Shown here piece by piece: positions 879 through 41,318 of a stretch of DNA of 41,318 bases. The notes under the pieces are model-generated. The model was not told the DNA's origin. It saw only the letters and a program-made list of their open reading frames with translations, and did not search any database. Numbering within the stretch: the first letter of the stretch is position 1; each line of letters begins with the position of its first letter. The stretch is from Clostridium phage slur17. The translations under genes and the position numbers were made by a program. The DNA is taken from sequence record LN881738.1; one strand, given 5' to 3'.

Positions 879-2678
879 TTAAGCATAAACATAGTATTGT
901 ACTGTAATAAATCCTTCTGAAAAAAAATTCATTCCGAGCCAGTAGCCTATTGTTTGGCTTCCTGACATTTCGTAAGACACACCTCGCACAGATGCAGAAA
1001 GTTCCAATTGTGGATTTGTATCACTTTTTTTTGCTGTCGCTGATGTGCTGAAATAACTTAAACAGCTACCATTTGTTGATGTAGACCTTATTGCACAAGT
1101 TGCTTTAAAATTTTTACCTGCAAATTTTTTTGGTAAGTCTATTATGATTTTTGAATCTTTATAATCAAAGTATGTGTATCCACTTTCTTGAAGATAATAT
1201 GACTCTGTTACATCTGAACCGGTGTAGAATTTTGTATATAGCCCCGAGTCGGTCATTTTTGTAAATCCCTTCCCGCTTATAAGTTTCAATCCTTCATCAT
1301 CAATAAGAACATAAGGACTTACACTATTAAAAGCAATTTTAAAAGTATTTGGGTTAAAATGAACATCTCCAAAACTATCAATTTCCATTGTTTTGACTCC
1401 ATTATCATTTACGACTACCATTTCTCTAGCATTTATATACATGCCTTTTAGCTGTCCAAACCAACCTCTATCTAGCTTCAACTCCCCAATTAATGCATCT
1501 GCTATTGCTCCTTTTTCTATCCACATAGTTCCATCGTCGATTTTTGTAGTCTGTGCTTCTACTTGATTAGAGAACTCTGTAACATTTCCATGCGAGTTTA
1601 CTGCTCTTACTCTGAAATACCAAGTTTGAAAAGGTTCAGCTTGATGAACGTAAGCACTTGCTTGCCCTACAAAAATTCGATTTGTAAAATTAATTGTATC
1701 TGGTACAAAGTCTTTAATTTGAGACGCATAAACTTCATATTTGTAATAAGACTTATTTGTAAATGTCCATGTTAGATTGATAAAAGCGAATAACCCCTCT
1801 GCTGTCAAAGCTGGTGTATTCGGTAAAGTGTCTGGAAACTCTGAATCATCTACTTTGACATTATCAATAGCTTTTTTTACTGTTTCTATTTTATTTTCTA
1901 TATTATTAAACTTGTTATTTAAAAAGTCTAAATGATTTATTAAATCGCCAACTTCAATACTATAGTATTTTCGATTTATTGGGCTATAGTCTGTTTTAAC
2001 TACTCTAGCAGTTGCGTTAATGTTTAAATTAAAATCTCGTATTATCACTTCATCACCTAGATTGACTGTTTCTAGCATTTTGTAATCTTTATAATTTATA
2101 GTTGTAGATAAATCTACGAAGTTGACTTTGTATAAAACTTTTGGTAAATCAACTTGATTGTATTTAAAATAGTCTTTGCATTTTTCTCTTAATTCTTCTT
2201 CAACACTGACCTCATCAGAACTAAAATCTATAGCAACAATCTTTTGGGTAGCATATTTATTCATATTAGGACTAACAATGTATTTTTCTGTCAATGTAAT
2301 CATTTCATCTTCGTAGACCGCATAAGGATATATTTTTGTTACAATATCTTGTGTATCATACTCCGCTTCAAGCCCTGTTATATTTTTTTTATATGCAAGT
2401 AGCACATTTTTACTCTCACCTCTTTGATAATTTAAGAAAACATTAAAATTATCAAAGAAAAGTTTCGCAGTTGGTTCAAATTTTTGAATTAGAGAATTTT
2501 CGCCCTCGCAGATTGCGCTGTAAGGGCTTTGCATTTCAATATTAATAGTATTCCTTGCCTTGATGTCTGAATGTCCTCTAAATCTGTTCTGTTCCTCACA
2601 AGCACGAAAGACTCTTTCTAAAGCTTCTTCGCAAGTAATATCGTTCAATTCCAAACTTTCTATGAAATTATTAAGCAA
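879..2678 (-). CDS. Tail tip protein (Tal-like, tail-associated endopeptidase-type) with FN3-like segment
   Basis: 599-aa ORF immediately after Dit and the tape measure; C-terminal stretch YFRVRAVNSHGNVTEFSNQV resembles a fibronectin type III strand pattern. The frame stays open for about 98 codons upstream of the annotated TTG (to 2999), so the true start is probably further upstream (see findings). Confidence 0.6.
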   Translation of the reverse strand: MLNNFIESLELNDITCEEALERVFRACEEQNRFRGHSDIKARNTINIEMQSPYSAICEGENSLIQKFEPTAKLFFDNFNVFLNYQRGESKNVLLAYKKNITGLEAEYDTQDIVTKIYPYAVYEDEMITLTEKYIVSPNMNKYATQKIVAIDFSSDEVSVEEELREKCKDYFKYNQVDLPKVLYKVNFVDLSTTINYKDYKMLETVNLGDEVIIRDFNLNINATARVVKTDYSPINRKYYSIEVGDLINHLDFLNNKFNNIENKIETVKKAIDNVKVDDSEFPDTLPNTPALTAEGLFAFINLTWTFTNKSYYKYEVYASQIKDFVPDTINFTNRIFVGQASAYVHQAEPFQTWYFRVRAVNSHGNVTEFSNQVEAQTTKIDDGTMWIEKGAIADALIGELKLDRGWFGQLKGMYINAREMVVVNDNGVKTMEIDSFGDVHFNPNTFKIAFNSVSPYVLIDDEGLKLISGKGFTKMTDSGLYTKFYTGSDVTESYYLQESGYTYFDYKDSKIIIDLPKKFAGKNFKATCAIRSTSTNGSCLSYFSTSATAKKSDTNPQLELSASVRGVSYEMSGSQTIGYWLGMNFFSEGFITVQYYVYA

Positions 2679-3007
2679 ATCATACTTAATGTGTTGCGCT
2701 TTTACATTAATATACCCACCTAGATTTTTTGATATATAATAAATTCTAAAAAGCTGGTCTTTGTAGTCGGGCGAAGTATCAGCTTTAATTAATCTATCTA
2801 CTTTTATTTCTTTAAATAAAAAAGAGTCTTCGTAGATAGTAAATTCTAACTCGAAAACTCCGCTTTCTTCCTCTCTAACATGGTCATTTATTACATTCGT
2901 AAGAACACCTAAACCTAAATGCCTAAAATCTGTTTCTTTTTCTTCATATAAAACTAATTTTCCTTTTTGAATAATTAATCCCTCCCTCCAAATTTTAATT
3001 TAAAACT

Positions 3008-3763
3008 TTATAAAATATTCCATCTAGGATTTATTTTTATGCTTTTTATATCCCCTTCCCAGCTAATCTGATTTTCTCCTTCTTCAAGTATGGGAAAGTC
3101 ACTAAAAAGCTTATTATTTTCATTTACAATAATGTTATTTTCTTTGTTTATTCTATATACATTCATCTGTTCGCTATCTATTATTAAGTCGCTTAAAATT
3201 CCATTTTCTGCCACCCCTCTTAGCACTATGCTTTGAGTATTTATTTTTATACTTATGTCCCCTGCTCCTTCTATATAGAGAACAGGTTTTGACTCTCTAT
3301 AGAAATTTGTTATAGTAGCACTCTTTAGATTTAATACATTTAAACTTATAATTTCTTCTTCTGCGTATCTAAAAGGGTAGCAGTCGAATGTTAAAAGACA
3401 TGATGCAAAGTTTTTAAAATTTCTAGTTATATCTAGTTTATTGTTACAGCTTGCTAGATAATAAAAGTCACTATTACTTAAAAAAAGTTTTTTATATGAT
3501 ATATCGCCCTGTAGCCATTTTTTTATTTCTGTTGCAACTTCTTCTATATTACTTTGTCTTGCATCTATATCGCATTCTATTGTAAGCGTAAAATTTTCAA
3601 AACCTTTTTTTAGTAGTAAATCTCCATCTTTGCCTGGCACACTCACTCTTTCAACTTCCATCTGTGGAGCTGATAAGTCGTTTATATTGTATATTTTTAA
3701 ACCAAATTCTCTGCTGTCTCGACCGTTATAAACGAAAAACATAGCTTTATGCCCTCCTCTCAT
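3008..3763 (-). CDS. Distal tail protein (Dit-like)
   Basis: 251-aa ORF directly downstream of the tape measure gene, the canonical Dit position in siphovirus tail modules; call by synteny only. Confidence 0.55.
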   Translation of the reverse strand: MRGGHKAMFFVYNGRDSREFGLKIYNINDLSAPQMEVERVSVPGKDGDLLLKKGFENFTLTIECDIDARQSNIEEVATEIKKWLQGDISYKKLFLSNSDFYYLASCNNKLDITRNFKNFASCLLTFDCYPFRYAEEEIISLNVLNLKSATITNFYRESKPVLYIEGAGDISIKINTQSIVLRGVAENGILSDLIIDSEQMNVYRINKENNIIVNENNKLFSDFPILEEGENQISWEGDIKSIKINPRWNIL

Positions 3764-3862
3764 TTATTATTTTTTAGACATAACTCCGTTTTTGTAGTTA
3801 TATTTTTTACTATAGTCTTTTCAAAAAAGATAAAAGGAAATATAAAAAAGAAAAGGAACATT

Positions 3863-6800
3863 TTATAAAGCTCCTTTTCTTTTTGCTAAGAACAATATTT
3901 CATCAAAAAGATTTTCTATATCTTGTTGTCTATTATTTACAAAGTTTTCTATATTAAGTTTAATACCTGCTTGATTTTCATTAGCTTCATCAGCCTTATT
4001 ATTACTCATTATAGCTGTTTCTTTTCCAGCTTTAAAATCTGTACTTGCAACTATATTAGCTTGTATTTTAGACGTTTCAAAATTAACTGTAGCTTTTAAT
4101 TTACCTGTAAGTTCAGATATATTTTTCTCTATTTTTTCTTTCAAGCCTGGCGTTTCTACATCTATTCCAACGCCGACCCCTTTTACAAGATTTCTACCAA
4201 TTAAATCTCGCATGATTATGGAAGGTGAATGCACTCCAAAGCCGTCTCTAAATCCATCTATAACATTACTAGCAAAATCAAGGACTTGGTCTTTTAACCA
4301 GCCACCCATGCCCGTTATACCTTCCCATAAGCCTCTTACAACATCTTTCCCGATACTCATAATTTTACTAGGCAAATCTTTCAAAGCATCCTTAACAGCA
4401 TTTGCCATATTTTTTCCAGCTTCTCCAGCTTGTTTGACTAAGTTAGTCCCCCAGCTTATGACATTTGAAATGATATTGTCTAGCCATTCTCTAAATTTTC
4501 CTGGAAGCTGGCTAACAGTATTGTATATATTGTTAAAAAAGTTTTTCGCTGTTTCTAAAGCTTTTTTAGATAAATTAACTTCCCACTCCATGACTTTTTG
4601 CATTATATTAGTTAATTTTTCCCATATTTTGCCCGGAAGTTCTGAAAAGAATTTCATTATATTTTCTAAGAATTTGCTTCCTGTTTCTAATGCTTTTTGA
4701 ATTAGATTAGAACCCCATTCCGAAACTTTTCCCATGATATCTGTAAACTTTTCCCATAATTTTCCCGGAAGCTCCGAAATTGGAATTAATACATTGTCAA
4801 CAAATTGATTAAAAATATCTGTTGCCAATTGCTTTAAATTTTCGCCCCAGCCACTTATTGTTTCTACTACTGTATTAAACCATTCCGAAATTCTTTCGGG
4901 TAGCTCTGTAAAAAACTGTGTTATATTTTCCCAAATTGCACCAAAAAACTCTGAAACAGAAACCTTGAAATTTTCGCCCCAAGTTTGAATATTTTGCAAT
5001 ATGATACTAAAAAATTCCGAAATTTTTTCCGGAAGGCTTACAAACCATTCGACAATGCTATTTATTATTTCTGGTAATGTTTCTGTTGCCCAGGCGTACA
5101 GATTAGCTCCTAAATCAACGAAAAAACCAGCAATAGACCCGATTACAAAACCAATATTATATGGAATTTGTTTAAACCATTCGACAATATTATTTATTAT
5201 AGCTGGCATTGTCTCATTAAAGAAACTTGATATTTTTTCTCCTATTTTCCCACATTCTTCTTTTATCTTGTCGCCAATACCCGCAAACCATTTTGGTACT
5301 GTGCTAGTAAAAAAGTCTAAACCACTTTTTAATCCGCTTCCAATTGCATCTCCAATTTTTGACCCAGTCTCTTTGAACCAATTGCTAAGACCGCCGAAAA
5401 TCTCTACAGCTTTATCTTTTATACTTGAAAAACCTTGCTGTGCCTTATCTCCAAACTCTGTAAAAAAGTCTCCAGCTCCTGCAAATCCTTCACTTATTTT
5501 ATTTCCAAGACCACCAAAAAATCCACCTATATTTTCAATTCCTTCTTTGAATTTATCTTTTACTTTAGAGAAGAAATCACCAATAGAATTTTTTGCACTA
5601 GCTAGCCACTCATTTATATTTTTGTCTGTATCTCTTAGCCATTTTTCTATTCCACCAAAAAAACCACCAATGCCATTGAACCCTTTTTTTATACTTTCAG
5701 ATAATTTACTAGCTGAATCCCCAACTTTAGGGACTGTTCCTGTTACGAGTTCATCACTGACAAGTTCTAAGCCTTCAACAGAAGTTTTAACATCATCTAT
5801 GCCATCAGCATATTCTTCTAGTTCTCCAGCGTCCAGTTTGGCAGAACCAGAATCCAAAGAGGAACTTTTAGCAGATGAGTCTACATCCCCTCCACTTGCG
5901 CTAGAAGTATTAGCTTTTTCTTTTAGTTTCTCATATTCTTCTAACTTTTTCTTCAATCTATCAAGCTCTTTTTCTTGTGCTGGTATAATCTCTTTTAAGT
6001 TAATAGCTTCCTTTACAGCTTCCTGGATAGATTGCTTTTTAGAGTTAACTCCATTTAACAAACTATCTGCTAAACTCTGCCCTGCATCCTGCCAATGCGG
6101 GTTATATTCACTTAAAAGTTTTATAATTTCTTCTGAATTTTTTTGTAAAAGTAGCCTTCTCGCTTCATTTTGAATATTTGTCTCTTCTAAAAGTTCACTA
6201 AAATATTTTTCAATTTCTTCTTTTTGACTAGCATTAGACTCTTTTATCAATTCAAGTTTTTTACTTTCTGCTTCTTTTTGATTGTCGTACTCTTCTTTGT
6301 ACTGCTCTTTTTTGTTACTAGCTTCTGTTTTTATATTTTCAATCTGTTCTTTTAATCTGTTTTTTTCTTGTTGCCTTTGTTCATCTAATAATTTCTTCTG
6401 TCTATCTGATTGTGCTTCTGATATTTCTTTTTGTATTTTTTCTCGTTCTTTTTGATTTTTAGCTGTTGCTAGTTTCCTGTCAAGGTCGCTTATTTTTTCA
6501 TTGTACGCTTTCTCTTCTTCTGCTTTTTGTTCTTCTTCAATTTGCTTGTCTATGGCGTCAATTTGTTCTTGTATAGCATTAGTTTTCTCATTTGTTTCTG
6601 TATCTAAATACTTTAATTTCTCATTGTATTCTTTTTCATAGACCTTTAATCTATCATTTGATGCCTTTTCCTCAACTTTTAGTCTTTCATCAAGCGCTTT
6701 TATTTGTATATCTTTTTGACTTTCATATTGATTTTTTAATGCTGTAGTTATAGCCTCGCAAATTTTTTCAAATTTACTCTTGTTGGTCTCAAGATTTTTT

Positions 6801-18419: not shown

Positions 18420-19742
18420 TTAGTCACCTCTTATAAATCTTTTTAAATATCTCTCTATTGTATATTCAAAAGCATCTAAACTATCTATATCACTTGACCC
18501 ATCATCAAGTCTTACATCCTCATTAGTTTCTTTACTATCCCAAACAGCACTACATAAAGCATTAACAAGAGTTTCACTATGCTTTGTATACTCAAACCTA
18601 CCTTGACTAATTAATAAGTCTGTAAGTCTTATCCTATCGTTAATAGCACTCTTCAAAGCATTTCTAACACTAACATTTAATTTTTCTTTTTCTACTGCAT
18701 TTTTAATGCCTCGTATTAATACCTGTTCAGCACTATCGCAATAAACATAATCAACTTTACCATACAGATTTATTACCCTTTTTATAAAGTTTATAAGTAA
18801 AGCATTCAACTCGTCTGGACTGGTATCTGCACTAGGTCTTTCACTTGCAAGAGCTATTACTTTTTTATAGTTATAAGTAATTCCAGTTGCGACAAAGGCA
18901 TGATATGATTTGTTACCCCCAAAATCCACTCCAATAATAACGTCCATAAGTGGGTCAACTGTTTCAGTCTTAAATTGCTCTTTATTATTAGCAAAGTATT
19001 CATATATAAGCCCCTCGGCTACACAGCGCTGACCTAGTATATCTCTCTTGTACCAAATACTGCCCTCGTCATATTGAGATATAATTGCCCGTTTTCTCTC
19101 GTCCGAGACTGTTATATTGTCGTGGATGGTAAAGTGCTGATAGTTATACCCACCTAGTAAAGTGCCTTCCCTATCTTTTTTCATATAAGCATCAATATAT
19201 TCTTTGTAAATTGACGAGTTGGGATTATCGGGGTTTAAATCCCAAAAAATTTTACGATTAGTTGATGCTATAATTCTATTAAAAGCCTCTTTGATAGTAT
19301 TGTCATGGTGCAGATTTATCTCTGTTGCTATCCACATGCCATATGAGTTACCCCTTATTTTCTTATAACTATCAGCCTTAGCCCCTCCGGCAAAAATAAC
19401 AATCTTTTGCTTATGCTTAGTTGAAATACCTTTTACATACAAACATTCATTGCCCTTAAATTTACCCCAATGACATTGCCCTCTGAAAATATATTCAAGT
19501 CCAAAACCATTAGCATCTCCAATGTTCAATTTTGCATTTGCACTTGTAGACCCTGTTGCTAGATGTATCTTATCTTTAGATGTCTTTATCTCATGCGCAA
19601 AGGCAAATACATTGTCAACCGTCTTACCCGCTCTTACAGCGCCTTCGGCTATATTGTATGTATTGATAGCGCACTTTTTAATATATTCTTTGTGCTTATC
19701 TCCAAATCGAAAAGGTATAGTTTTCTTCTTAGTTACTGCCAT
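18420..19742 (-). CDS. terL: Terminase large subunit
   Basis: 440 aa; N-terminal P-loop GAVRAGKT, C-terminal nuclease-like acidic region; terminase-portal order. Confidence 0.85.
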   Translation of the reverse strand: MAVTKKKTIPFRFGDKHKEYIKKCAINTYNIAEGAVRAGKTVDNVFAFAHEIKTSKDKIHLATGSTSANAKLNIGDANGFGLEYIFRGQCHWGKFKGNECLYVKGISTKHKQKIVIFAGGAKADSYKKIRGNSYGMWIATEINLHHDNTIKEAFNRIIASTNRKIFWDLNPDNPNSSIYKEYIDAYMKKDREGTLLGGYNYQHFTIHDNITVSDERKRAIISQYDEGSIWYKRDILGQRCVAEGLIYEYFANNKEQFKTETVDPLMDVIIGVDFGGNKSYHAFVATGITYNYKKVIALASERPSADTSPDELNALLINFIKRVINLYGKVDYVYCDSAEQVLIRGIKNAVEKEKLNVSVRNALKSAINDRIRLTDLLISQGRFEYTKHSETLVNALCSAVWDSKETNEDVRLDDGSSDIDSLDAFEYTIERYLKRFIRGD

Positions 19743-20436
19743 AGATTTCTGCCTCTATCTCTTCTATATCCTCTATTTCTAAGTCATTACCAGTCAACTT
19801 ATTTGTTCTCGCTTTTATGTTTTCTATTCTGCTTTTTTGTTCTTCTGTTGCTAAATCCCAATTTTTATGAAGTAGTTCCTCATAGTCTTTTATCATTTTG
19901 GACAAAGCTTTAAATGCTGTCGCCTCTGCCTTCATAGCATTTGTAACTTTATCCCAAGAGTGTTGAATTTCATACTCTTTAATTTTATTACCATTTTTCT
20001 TAATGTCAGTTGTATGGTCTTTTTTATTTTTGACATGGGTAATCTTAAAAGAATCTAATATTTTCGCATACTGAACTACTATACTGTTCCAAAGAATGTC
20101 TAAAGAATTGCCACCATCCTTCTCGATATATTTAACAATCTCGTAAGTTCTAGCAGGCAAAAGCTTAGAGAAAAATCCATGAGTTCTAGCATTTTGATTA
20201 TTCGCTGGTGCGCCTCCTTCATGCCCTAAAGCATTTTGGTTGCCGGCTGGTGCGCCAACTTTCTTATTTATTCCAAGTCTATAATCCCATCTATCAATTT
20301 TTTTCCAACGACTAATATTGCAACTTTTTTCTTCTAACATTTTAGAGATATCAATTAATTTTATTCTCCCATTTTTCTCCTTGTAAATCTCAAACGCTTT
20401 TTCTCGATTGGAATTTTTTATTGAAATACAAATCAA
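19729..20436 (-). CDS. terS: Terminase small subunit
   Basis: 235 aa; N-terminal HTH-like region then GAPAGNQNALGHEGGAPANNQNA repeats; overlaps terL start by 14 nt. Confidence 0.7.
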   Translation of the reverse strand: MICISIKNSNREKAFEIYKEKNGRIKLIDISKMLEEKSCNISRWKKIDRWDYRLGINKKVGAPAGNQNALGHEGGAPANNQNARTHGFFSKLLPARTYEIVKYIEKDGGNSLDILWNSIVVQYAKILDSFKITHVKNKKDHTTDIKKNGNKIKEYEIQHSWDKVTNAMKAEATAFKALSKMIKDYEELLHKNWDLATEEQKSRIENIKARTNKLTGNDLEIEDIEEIEAEIYGSN

Positions 20437-23482: not shown

Positions 23483-23815
23483 TTATCCTCTTTTTTTATA
23501 ATCTAAAAATTTAATTTTATTAGTATGAACTTTTGTATAAGTTCTTTTCTCGCCATCTTTTTCATAAAGATTAACCCTTATAGACCCTTCAACCGCTACT
23601 AACCTACCTTTATCTAAATTATTAGCACATACTTCTGCTAACTTCCCCATCACCTCAATAGGTATGAAATCAGTTTCCTTAGTTCCATCTTTTTTAACAT
23701 AATCTCTATCTACTGCTATTGTAAAAGTAGATACAGCTGTTCCAGAACCTGGTATATATTTCAATTCGGGGTCTCTTGTTAGTCTACCAATTAGTGTAGT
23801 GTTATTCATTTCCAA
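23483..23815 (-). CDS. ssb: Single-stranded DNA-binding protein
   Basis: 110 aa; N-terminal TLIGRLTRDPELKYIPGSGTAVSTFTIAV is the classic SSB OB-fold signature. Confidence 0.8.
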   Translation of the reverse strand: MEMNNTTLIGRLTRDPELKYIPGSGTAVSTFTIAVDRDYVKKDGTKETDFIPIEVMGKLAEVCANNLDKGRLVAVEGSIRVNLYEKDGEKRTYTKVHTNKIKFLDYKKRG

Positions 23816-24848: not shown

Positions 24849-25571
24849 TTATGCTATTATATCTATATTTTTAATACCTTCTAATTTCTTCTCTAAGTAC
24901 TCTTTTATATTTTTTATTGCTTCAAGTCTCCATGCTCCACCATCTGCTTCGATTAACTTAAATGCAATGCCCTCTTTTACTCTAAAGATAAATTCACTTT
25001 CGGGCTGGTCTACTTCCGCAAAAGTTCTGTAAGGTTTTAACTTAACTCTGTTAGGCAGGATTACATCCTCTACACTTGCTACACCTGTAGACATTGTGAC
25101 TACTTGTGATACTCCATCATCTTGCACAGTTTTTACACTTGTTTCTTTTACATTTCCGCTTACTTTTAAAAGCAGTTTCTTATCTTCTGTATCTACGAAA
25201 GAGGATTGCAACATAACGTTAAATTGCTCTGCATCAAGCGAACAATCGAAATTAACATGAGGTAATAAAGCTCTACTTTCAATGTAAATATCCCTCTTGC
25301 CACTTTCAAGTAGTTCAGAACACAATATAACACTTTTAGGGCTTTCAACTTGAACCATAAGTTTTCCACTTTTAAGCTTACTATCAATACTTGATTTTAT
25401 ATATCCTATTAAACCATCTAAAGTGCTTAGCCTAACTATTTCAGCTGGTCTAGGATGAACCTCAATCAAGGGGTCAGTCGTATACGTAACCCCATTGATT
25501 TCTCTTGTTTCTATTTTTCTTGCTCCAACTTCCATTACCCTGTTAAATAAATCTGTTAACATATTAAACAC
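24849..25571 (-). CDS. Hypothetical protein (possible replication/recombination function)
   Basis: 240 aa; same operon as SSB; no motif recognised. Confidence 0.45.
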   Translation of the reverse strand: MFNMLTDLFNRVMEVGARKIETREINGVTYTTDPLIEVHPRPAEIVRLSTLDGLIGYIKSSIDSKLKSGKLMVQVESPKSVILCSELLESGKRDIYIESRALLPHVNFDCSLDAEQFNVMLQSSFVDTEDKKLLLKVSGNVKETSVKTVQDDGVSQVVTMSTGVASVEDVILPNRVKLKPYRTFAEVDQPESEFIFRVKEGIAFKLIEADGGAWRLEAIKNIKEYLEKKLEGIKNIDIIA

Positions 25572-33877: not shown

Positions 33878-34168
33878 TTGGAAAAGATGAACGTTTATCT
33901 GCAAATTGGAAAAGAGTTATCTGAAAAAATGACTAAATCGGAGTTGAATAAGTTTTCGCAAGAAGTAACGAATTATCTACGATTCGCTGGACATGATAAT
34001 GATATGAAAATTAAACTATTTCAAACAATTATAGAAGCAATTGCTAGAAAAAGAGTAACATTGCCAGCTGACAATGAATTTACACAAGGAATAATGTTAA
34101 GTAACGAATTAGAGATGACAACGAATGTAGGATTTATAATCGAAGGATTAAGTTATCATAATAACTAA
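33878..34168 (+). CDS. Hypothetical protein
   Basis: 96-aa ORF; the likely true start is the ATG at 33887 (MNVYLQIGKE...); followed by a strong terminator. Confidence 0.45.
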   Translation: MEKMNVYLQIGKELSEKMTKSELNKFSQEVTNYLRFAGHDNDMKIKLFQTIIEAIARKRVTLPADNEFTQGIMLSNELEMTTNVGFIIEGLSYHNN

Positions 34169-39752: not shown

Positions 39753-41318
39753 TAACTCACCTCTTCTTTTATTTCTTCTATTTGATTACCTTTAAAAGTC
39801 GTTTTTACTTTACTTACTAATACATTATCTATATATTTTTCGTCTACTATAGTCCCATCTGCATTAAATTTAGTTATAGTTTTACTAACCGAGTCTAAAA
39901 TATCTGTTATAGAGCCGTCTGAATTAAAAGTCGTGCTTTTTTTAATGTAATCTAACTCTTTCGGTTTTTCTAATAACTCATTCCATGTAACTTTTCCTTT
40001 TGACGCTTTCCCCGTGTCTTCTCCATTTATAAACCAATTACCGTTTTCGCCGATTGCTGGAGTATAACCTTGTTCCCCTCTAAGCTCTGTATATATATAT
40101 TCCGTTTGTCCTTCTTCTCTAATACCTAGCTGACTTCCATTCCAATTAAATTCTAATTTATTTCCTGTCGCTCCTTTTAGATTTGTATAGCTATAGTCCT
40201 CTTGACCTTCTATTCTAACGCCTAGCTCCGTACCATCCCAACTAAATTCAATGCTATCGCCTTTTTGACCTTTCAAATCTGTATAAGTATAATTCTCCTG
40301 TCCTTCTATCCTTACACCTAGTCGTGTGCCATCCCATGCAAATTCGATATTGTCACCTTTGAGGTCTATATACTTATAATCTAATTCGTATTGTTGCCTA
40401 ACGCCTAACTGTGTGCCATCCCAATTAAATTCTAGGTTCTTGCCGTCCACGCCCGCTAGAGAACCTAAGTCTTCCCATTTAGTTTGATATATATAAATAT
40501 TTCTCCCTATAATCCAGCAATCTCCGATAGTAGGGTCTAATGGTAAGTTATCTATAGAATCTAATTTTCCTAAAATCCTCAAAGATGCCCCTCTAGCTGG
40601 TTTTTGGGTATCTATATTATTAATCCACCAGTTTCCATTTTCTCCTATTGTTGGAGTATAACCCTGCTCCCCTTTCAATTCTGTATAACTATAATTTTCT
40701 TGACCTTCTATCTTTATACCTAATCGTGTGCCATTCCAATTAAATTCAATACTATCACCTTTATCGCCTTTTTGACCTTTTAAATCTGTATAAGTATAAT
40801 TCTCCTGTCCTTCTATCCTTATACCTAGTCGCGTGCCATCCCAATTAAATTCTAAGCCATCTCCATTTTCACCCTTTATTTTTATGTCAGGAACTTTGAC
40901 CCAATTAGTGTTGTCCCAAACATATAAATCAATTTGGTTTTCTATTGTTGCGCTTTTTACAAAGTAAGCATCACTTAAAGTTGGATTGACTGGAAGTGCT
41001 GATATATTATCTAAACTTCCTTTTATTTCTATTCCTACCCCTTTTAACTCTTCTTTTGTGGGGATTGCATTAATAGCGTCTGTAACTTCTGTCTGCATAG
41101 TTTCTTTAGCTGTAGTTACTTCGCTAATCATAGTATTTTTAGCTGTTGTAACTTCCGCTTTAACTGTGTTAACTTCGTCTATTAATGTTGTTTTAGTAGT
41201 ATTAACATCACTAATCATGCTGTTTTTAGCGTCTGTAACTTCTGTAACTTTAGAGTCGAAAGTTTCTTTTATACTATTAAATTCTTCGACCCTTTTACCT
41301 TCTGCGATTTCTAATTCT
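39752..41318 (-). CDS. Tail fibre protein with six ~30-aa tandem repeats; N-terminus lies beyond the window end
   Basis: The frame is open from 41318 down to the stop at 39752; the ORF track starts it at an internal Met (41218). Contains coiled-coil heptad-like units (EVTDAKNSMISDVNTTK) and six copies of (L/I)EFNWDGTRLGIRIEGQENYTYTDLKG. Confidence 0.6.
   Translation of the reverse strand, partial: ELEIAEGKRVEEFNSIKETFDSKVTEVTDAKNSMISDVNTTKTTLIDEVNTVKAEVTTAKNTMISEVTTAKETMQTEVTDAINAIPTKEELKGVGIEIKGSLDNISALPVNPTLSDAYFVKSATIENQIDLYVWDNTNWVKVPDIKIKGENGDGLEFNWDGTRLGIRIEGQENYTYTDLKGQKGDKGDSIEFNWNGTRLGIKIEGQENYSYTELKGEQGYTPTIGENGNWWINNIDTQKPARGASLRILGKLDSIDNLPLDPTIGDCWIIGRNIYIYQTKWEDLGSLAGVDGKNLEFNWDGTQLGVRQQYELDYKYIDLKGDNIEFAWDGTRLGVRIEGQENYTYTDLKGQKGDSIEFSWDGTELGVRIEGQEDYSYTNLKGATGNKLEFNWNGSQLGIREEGQTEYIYTELRGEQGYTPAIGENGNWFINGEDTGKASKGKVTWNELLEKPKELDYIKKSTTFNSDGSITDILDSVSKTITKFNADGTIVDEKYIDNVLVSKVKTTFKGNQIEEIKEEVS

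Follow-up and report, generated by a model that had tools for sequence, protein, structure and literature searches.

The tail-tip hub gene Tal and its neighbours

The gene for the tail-tip hub protein Tal raises a basic question in Clostridium phage slur17: which codon starts it? In the window, by which we mean the whole 41,318-nt stretch of record LN881738.1 analysed here, the gene as usually annotated opens at TTG 2678-2676 on the minus strand and runs to a stop codon at 881-879 (879..2678). An earlier note, made from the DNA letters, proposed that translation begins about 98 codons further upstream, at an ATT codon behind a strong Shine-Dalgarno (SD) sequence. Our comparative analysis points the same way. 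With a probability of about 0.85, we place the start of Tal at AUU 2972-2970 behind a strong SD, which would make it a tail-tip hub gene of 697 codons (2972-879, minus strand) encoding a protein of about 80 kDa, in place of the 599 or 589 codons that records usually give it.

Public databases disagree on this matter. Tal is present in at least 12 lengths (508, 589, 599, 656, 666, 670, 677, 679, 697, 699, 703, and 706 aa), and between them the annotated forms use ATG, GTG, TTG, ATT, ATC, ATA, and CTG starts. The start codons behind the length variants were inferred by comparing annotated N-termini with the DNA. On this basis, the 670-aa form (467 contigs) appears to start with ATA at codon 28 and the 706-aa form, on window-type sequence, with ATT 2999-2997. 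On phiCD111-type sequence, the 677-aa form appears to start with CTG at codon 21 and the 699-aa form with an ATT two codons upstream. The start proposed here is also in use. In GenBank record KU057941, the coding sequence of CDHS1_19 (also CDSH1_19; ALY06962.1, 697 aa) already starts at ATT 2972-2970, and RefSeq protein WP_413927221.1 (697 aa) starts at the ATC of lineage L138. These two entries share the proposed start, but they are annotations without stated experimental support and are contradicted by other records. The truncated form has also entered family resources: PHROG 8687 (599 positions, ‘tail protein with peptidase activity’) derives from N-terminally truncated Tal. We found no paper that discusses the Tal start, including in the literature on phiCD38-2 and CDHS-1. 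Likewise, no experimental Tal N-terminus was found in the literature searched, which did not include the phiCD38-2 description paper.

The locus belongs to a closely related set of phages. Region 2400-3300 of the window is 100% identical to phiCD38-2, phiCD146, CDSH1 (CDHS1), and AR1075-1, and 87% identical to phiCD111; all five are Clostridioides difficile siphophages of the genus Leicestervirus. The window is itself a Leicestervirus, one of the phiCD38-2/phiCD146/CDHS1 group. Pfam profiles give the minus-strand tail gene order as tape measure protein (TMP; 9166-3863, PF10145), Dit, the distal tail protein (3008..3742, stop TAA 3010-3008; PF05709 Sipho_tail, 30.3 bits), Tal, an 80-aa ORF (852-610), and a BppU_N gene that starts at TTG 595 (PF10651). 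The order typical of Tal hubs, namely tape measure, Dit, Tal, and then baseplate or receptor-binding genes, is thus present in the window. Once Tal begins at ATT 2972, the apparent 329-nt gap between Dit and Tal shrinks to a 35-nt spacer (2973..3007, minus strand) that extends from the Dit stop to the ATT.

Several other features of the window were recorded alongside this analysis. The mechanical ORF of Dit begins at ATG 3763 on the minus strand and lacks an SD, and the length of Dit is inconsistent in public records (735 nt in some, 756 nt in others). Its true start is likely ATG 3742-3740, behind the SD GAGAGGAGGG, in which case the protein would begin MFFVYNGRDS. A perfect 15-bp hairpin (AAAAAGAAAAGGAGC...GUUCCUUUUCUUUUU) lies at 3845-3884 (minus strand), with the TMP stop codon 3865-3863 in its 10-nt loop. 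Its folding energy is -17.4 kcal/mol (z = -4.24; equally stable in 0 of 200 shuffles), and it is followed by a U-rich tract and a gap of approximately 120 nt to Dit. The hairpin may act as a terminator or attenuator that separates TMP from the distal tail genes; a simple terminator scan did not pick it up because its loop is 10 nt long. The window itself starts inside a BppU_N-type baseplate gene (1-595 and 41190-41318, minus strand). Its two ends have alike but not identical sequence (...AGTAGTATTAACATCACTAATCATGCTGT...), and joining them gives no open frame, which suggests either internal repeats in this gene or an assembly break there. In four further ORFs (19729-20436, 23483-23815, 24849-25571, 33878-34168), the first canonical start lies inside or at an SD-like motif, at a spacing of 0 to -2. 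Given this overlap, their true starts are probably a few codons downstream of the mechanical start.

Coding evidence upstream of the annotated start

The earlier note's reading of the DNA around the annotated start is accurate in all its sequence statements. On the minus strand, the Tal frame contains no stop between TTG 2678-2676 and TAA 3002-3000, and no in-frame ATG, GTG, or TTG occurs upstream of that TTG back to the TAA. TTG 2678 has no SD, and its duplex with the anti-SD (+0.1 kcal/mol) is the worst of 39 sites tested. A strong SD does lie just after the Dit stop, at exactly 2989-2980 where the note had given about 2979-2990; its sequence, GGAGGGAGGG, contains a GGAGG core and has a single copy in the whole window. 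ATT codons follow it at 2975-2973 and 2972-2970, and the intervening frame reads as protein (IQKGKLVLYEEKETDFRHLGLGV...).

A frame of this length is not expected by chance. The frame is closed by TAA 3002-3000 and thereafter open down to the stop 881-879. A 107-codon open frame at the upstream stretch was seen in 0 of 20,000 shuffles, and the other five frames contain 5-13 stops each. In no other real gene of the window is the first canonical start preceded by a long open stretch. The absence of canonical starts over 97 codons is another matter: within the genes of this phage, 3.5-7.8% of stretches of equal length also lack ATG, GTG, and TTG, so this property is only mildly unusual and not significant alone. 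We also considered selection against internal canonical starts in the N-terminal domain of Tal. This idea was rejected because the absence is within chance, and it is also contradicted by other lineages, in which codon 19 is ATG or codon 32 is GTG.

The 98 codons upstream of TTG 2678 clearly belong to Tal and are coding in its frame, as judged from sequence conservation, dN/dS, matching domains and folds, and the points at which homologues begin. Among four diverged lineages (the window, phiCD111, L012, and L015), the dN/dS values of codons 2-98 span 0.04-0.18, and pS reaches up to 0.43. This indicates purifying selection, and codons 99-330 have dN/dS in the same range. Codons 2-98 (2679..2969, minus strand) correspond to the N-terminal domain D1, which is absent from the annotation in most records. 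The first 98 residues match PF18994 (Prophage_tailD1, ‘Prophage endopeptidase tail N-terminal domain’) with an E-value of 9.6e-5 and 22.9 bits, just below the cut-off of 23.6. In the full protein, PF06605 (Prophage_tail) scores 73.8 bits against a gathering cut-off of 31.3 and covers residues 97-342 (profile positions 2-237 of 250); the two domain matches adjoin at residue 97. The full protein enters PF06605 at profile position 2, the TTG-truncated ORF not before position 12. The remainder of the protein (codons 99-697; 879..2678) also has a weak Pfam match to fn3.

Homologues extend over the same region. The 98 residues match eight PHROG tail-protein families from positions 2-7 onward (best E = 1.6e-28), and tblastn recovers them in 90 records of phages from Streptococcus, Enterococcus, Clostridium, Bacillus, and Listeria. 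Outside the Leicestervirus clade, the listed matches lie under annotated Tal or endopeptidase genes, whereas those in Leicestervirus records fall where no gene is annotated, CDSH1 excepted. An exhaustive HMMER search gave 6,407 relatives with aligned N-termini. We projected the N-termini of the best 150 of these, together with one earlier-found relative (P0001), onto the Tal query. Residue 1 of the homologue falls at query residues -3 to +10 in 147 of the 151 (mode 4), and none of the 151 starts near residue 98. The extra ~98 residues, which the earlier note had suggested comparing with Tal homologues, are therefore conserved, and all but four of the 151 homologues have their first residue no more than about 10 residues from the ATT. 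This is the opposite of the pattern that the note had set against its own proposal, namely homologues that begin at the position matching 2678 and an upstream frame that lacks conservation as protein. Twelve of the most conserved positions of the family lie in the missing part (Y9, F16, G20, L24, E34, N37, G38, K63, Q73, F75, I77, and H94). Other searches were less productive. Apart from HMMER, a protein homologue search with the first 330 residues gave a single match. A metagenome scan for the conserved 19-mer TTATATGAAGAAAAAGAAA gave 120 loci, none of them a Tal relative by tblastn; the pattern is too low in complexity.

Structure prediction places the upstream residues, with high confidence, in a gp27-like hub. 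An AlphaFold model of residues 1-400 has a mean pLDDT of 88.6, with values of 88-98 across the first 100 residues. A PDB sequence search with the full protein gave no match, and a fold search on the predicted model was used instead. The model matches gp27-like hubs over its full length, namely the monocin tip (9j1k_L), Listeria gp18 (3gs9), 80alpha Tal (6v8i_AE), Mu gp44 (1wru), and T4 gp27 (1k28_D), each with a Foldseek probability of 1.00. Tal is accordingly predicted to have a gp27-like hub fold. Taken with the conservation, dN/dS, domain, and homologue data, this bears out the claim that Tal begins approximately 98 codons above its first canonical start. At the protein level, the predicted tryptic peptides LVLYEEK, HLGLGVLTNVINDHVR, EEESGVFELEFTIYEDSFLFK, ADTSPDYK, and NLGGYINVK lie within residues 1-98, and the calculated mass of the TTG form is 68.6 kDa compared to about 80 kDa for the 697-residue form.

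The start codon and its rivals

The codon itself is best located by comparison with relatives. The closest relative with a canonical start, L017 (P0003, 72% identical), reads AAAGGTGGTGAGAAG GTG CAA AAA GGC AAA ATG GTA TTA TAT GAA, and the window reads GGAGGGATTAATT ATT CAA AAA GGA AAA TTA GTT TTA TAT GAA. The GTG start of L017 thus aligns codon-for-codon with ATT 2972-2970. Two further relatives, phiCD24-1 (TTG) and Hain-Saunders-2022a (ATG), start within a few codons of this ATT. Within the clade, 40 of the 144 members of cluster 1 were read for their start codon. The aligned codon is ATT in five lineages (window type, phiCD111/L140, L012, L015, and L141/142) and ATC in a sixth, L138 (Clostridioides sp. 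ZZV14), which was found through P0167, a sister member of the cluster of P0002. None of the six lineages has a canonical start at this conserved N-terminal codon. In the window and phiCD111 lineages, an in-frame ATG, GTG, or TTG first appears at codon 98; incidental canonical codons are present in a few lineages, at codon 19, 32, or -6. The conservation of ATT/ATC rests on six lineages, too few to demonstrate selection for the weak codon.

Spacing and ribosome-binding strength lead to the same codon. A 1-nt indel lies just upstream of the start (ATTAATTATT compared to ATTAAT-ATT or GTTAAC-ATC). As a result, the lineages share no in-frame codon further 5', which removes ATT 2975 and ATT 2999 as conserved starts. 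The window, L012, and L141/142 have ATT 2975-2973 in frame, whereas phiCD111, L140, L015, and L138 have lost it through the 1-nt deletion. The GGAGG core is conserved in all six lineages and ends 8 nt before the ATT (7 nt in the shorter lineages), compared to a spacing of 6-9 nt, mode 7, at well-supported starts of this genome. The anti-SD used for duplex scoring was the Firmicutes consensus rather than a C. difficile rRNA sequence. The duplex of GGAGGGAGGG (2980..2989, minus strand) with it is -18.2 kcal/mol, ranking first of the 39 sites tested in the window; TTG 2648 reaches -5.5 kcal/mol. Folding of the RNA around the ribosome-binding site gives no significant structure (z = 0.44), and no structural control is therefore proposed. 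The earlier note had left the two ATT codons open. Initiation at AUU behind the strong SD is supported, and the comparative data favour 2972-2970.

Some public records keep the upstream domain and begin Tal at a different non-canonical codon, a reading that we consider improbable. ATT 2975-2973, ATT 2999-2997, and ATA 2891-2889 are all in frame in the window. The NCBI pipeline picked ATA at codon 28, CTG at codon 21, and ATT 2999-2997 for this same gene, and the 706-aa form in RefSeq and the 670-aa form, which is given for window-identical sequence in its set of contigs, both rely on such codons. However, ATT 2999 lies upstream of the SD, has nearly no SD of its own (-3.3 kcal/mol), and is separated from ATT 2972 by a frame that a 1-nt indel breaks in four lineages. 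ATA at codon 28 has no properly spaced SD (-8.4 kcal/mol at poor spacing) and would remove the conserved Y9, F16, G20, and L24; the purifying selection on codons 2-27 also speaks against it. ATT 2975 (2973..2975, minus strand), a possible alternative in the window lineage only, would add one residue. It sits 5 nt from GGAGG, which is short though not impossible, but it is absent or out of frame in four of the six lineages. It is less probable still that the domain is reached through recoding or coupling, either by reinitiation after a mini-ORF over the SD or by frameshifting out of Dit or a short upstream ORF. For example, in phiCD111, L140, and L138 the sequence ATG GAA RGG AGG GRT TAA ends 1 nt before the ATT or ATC (L003 1806-1830; L138 583-600), and an in-frame ATG six codons upstream in L015 (about 1480-1503) is the basis of the 703-aa annotation. 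Such upstream ATG and TTG triplets are nevertheless not conserved (ACG in L012, TTC in L141/142), their frame relative to Tal varies by lineage, and none has an SD. A Dit-Tal fusion by frameshift was rejected, as Dit is read in another frame and TAA 3002-3000 stops the Tal frame downstream of Dit.

The remaining explanations dispense with the upstream domain or with the natural start. If the usual annotation were right, Tal would start at TTG 2678 (or 2648) and the 329 bp upstream would be a non-coding spacer or a decaying remnant. phiCD38-2, phiCD146, phiCD111, and AR1075-1 are annotated with a TTG-type start, and PHROG 8687 is built on that form. We nonetheless find this reading scarcely credible: TTG 2678 has no SD and cuts into PF06605, the upstream frame is under purifying selection and open against all shuffles, none of the 151 homologues starts at the TTG, and in the predicted model the hub fold needs the N-terminal domain. 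The 330-bp non-coding gap in the tail operon that the earlier note gave as the fallback does not materialize, as the 329 bp encode the N-terminal domain of Tal. A sequencing or assembly error that removed a canonical start, or a Tal pseudogene, deserves almost no weight. ATT differs from ATG by a single base, but the identical ATT context is present in at least seven independent sequences (phiCD38-2, phiCD146, CDSH1, AR1075-1, and three IMG/VR prophage contigs), and ATT or ATC occupies the same codon in five further diverged lineages. These seven records and five lineages refute the sequencing error that the earlier note had offered as an alternative. In addition, phiCD38-2 and CDHS1 are propagated, infectious phages (PMC8619979).

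Mechanism, significance, and known systems

In the reading that we prefer, a start at AUU 2972-2970, translation would begin at a near-cognate codon. The 30S subunit would be positioned by the unusually strong SD, the GGAGG core of which ends 8 nt upstream, and initiator fMet-tRNA would pair with AUU despite a third-position mismatch, giving a protein that begins Met-Gln-Lys-Gly-Lys. This use of AUU by the ribosome and fMet-tRNA is inferred from the sequence. A very strong and well-spaced SD would offset the weak codon, and their combination would probably result in modest output. Siphophage tail tips contain Tal at three copies per virion, and a modest output would suit a protein needed at this number. 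A dosage role of the weak start is plausible. It is unproven, since close relatives use GTG, TTG, or ATG and six lineages provide little statistical power. A stronger version, which we regard as rather unlikely, is that selection maintains AUU/AUC with the strongest SD across the phiCD38-2/phiCD111 clade as a dosage or state sensor. If true, the sensor could, within one operon, keep Tal at a lower level than Dit and the tape measure protein. Tail-tip output could also depend on the IF3 and ppGpp status of the host, with assembly throttled in starved cells.

Near-cognate starts of this kind have been described. AUU, AUC, and AUA are rare bacterial start codons that are read by the initiator tRNA and discriminated against by IF3; for one phage gene that was expressed in E. 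coli, the cited measurements come to about 5-7.5% of the efficiency of AUG (PMC5499595). The gene infC starts with AUU or AUC (PMC5499595), and in Clostridium sporogenes and C. butyricum, translation has been shown by experiment to start at an engineered AUU (PMC11040787). The proposed Tal start corrects the annotation and adds an ordinary natural example to the known AUU/AUC class; it is not a new mechanism.

The correction has practical consequences. The reference records of phiCD38-2, phiCD146, phiCD111, and AR1075-1 are without the first 98-108 residues of the tail-tip hub, and the missing N-terminal domain is the part that docks Tal onto Dit and the tape measure. Work to express, model, or engineer the tail tips of these C. 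difficile phages, which are therapeutic candidates, has to use the 697-residue protein. In addition, Tal provides a clean, clade-conserved natural case of AUU/AUC initiation in a Clostridioides phage. As a result, the reason for a weak start on a low-copy structural gene becomes testable.

Among known systems, Tal most closely resembles the Tal hubs of Gram-positive siphophages, with which it shares its gene position after the tape measure and Dit. Listeria gp18 (3gs9), 80alpha Tal (6v8i), and the monocin tip (9j1k) have the same domain order, D1 and then Prophage_tail, although D1 of this Tal stays just short of its Pfam cut-off and draws its strong support from the PHROG matches, the aligned N-termini of relatives, and the confident fold prediction. 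The predicted fold of the phage Tal matches such hubs over about 360-405 aligned columns. An N-terminal motif, LY..(E)T.F.H.GLG.L, is common to the family and this Tal. The differences lie at the very start: relatives begin with ATG, GTG, or TTG, whereas this clade has ATT or ATC at that codon, and its N-terminus is 3-4 residues longer than the family mode. Tal can likewise be compared with infC, the gene for IF3, in which a near-cognate AUU or AUC is also conserved across related genomes at a functional gene start (PMC5499595). Only the codon type is shared, however; the infC codon is the target of IF3 autoregulation, while no regulatory role is shown or needed for Tal. The engineered starts of C. 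sporogenes and C. butyricum (PMC11040787) show that ribosomes of clostridia can begin at an AUU placed behind a normal ribosome-binding site. Those are synthetic constructs in other species, whereas Tal is a natural phage gene in C. difficile.
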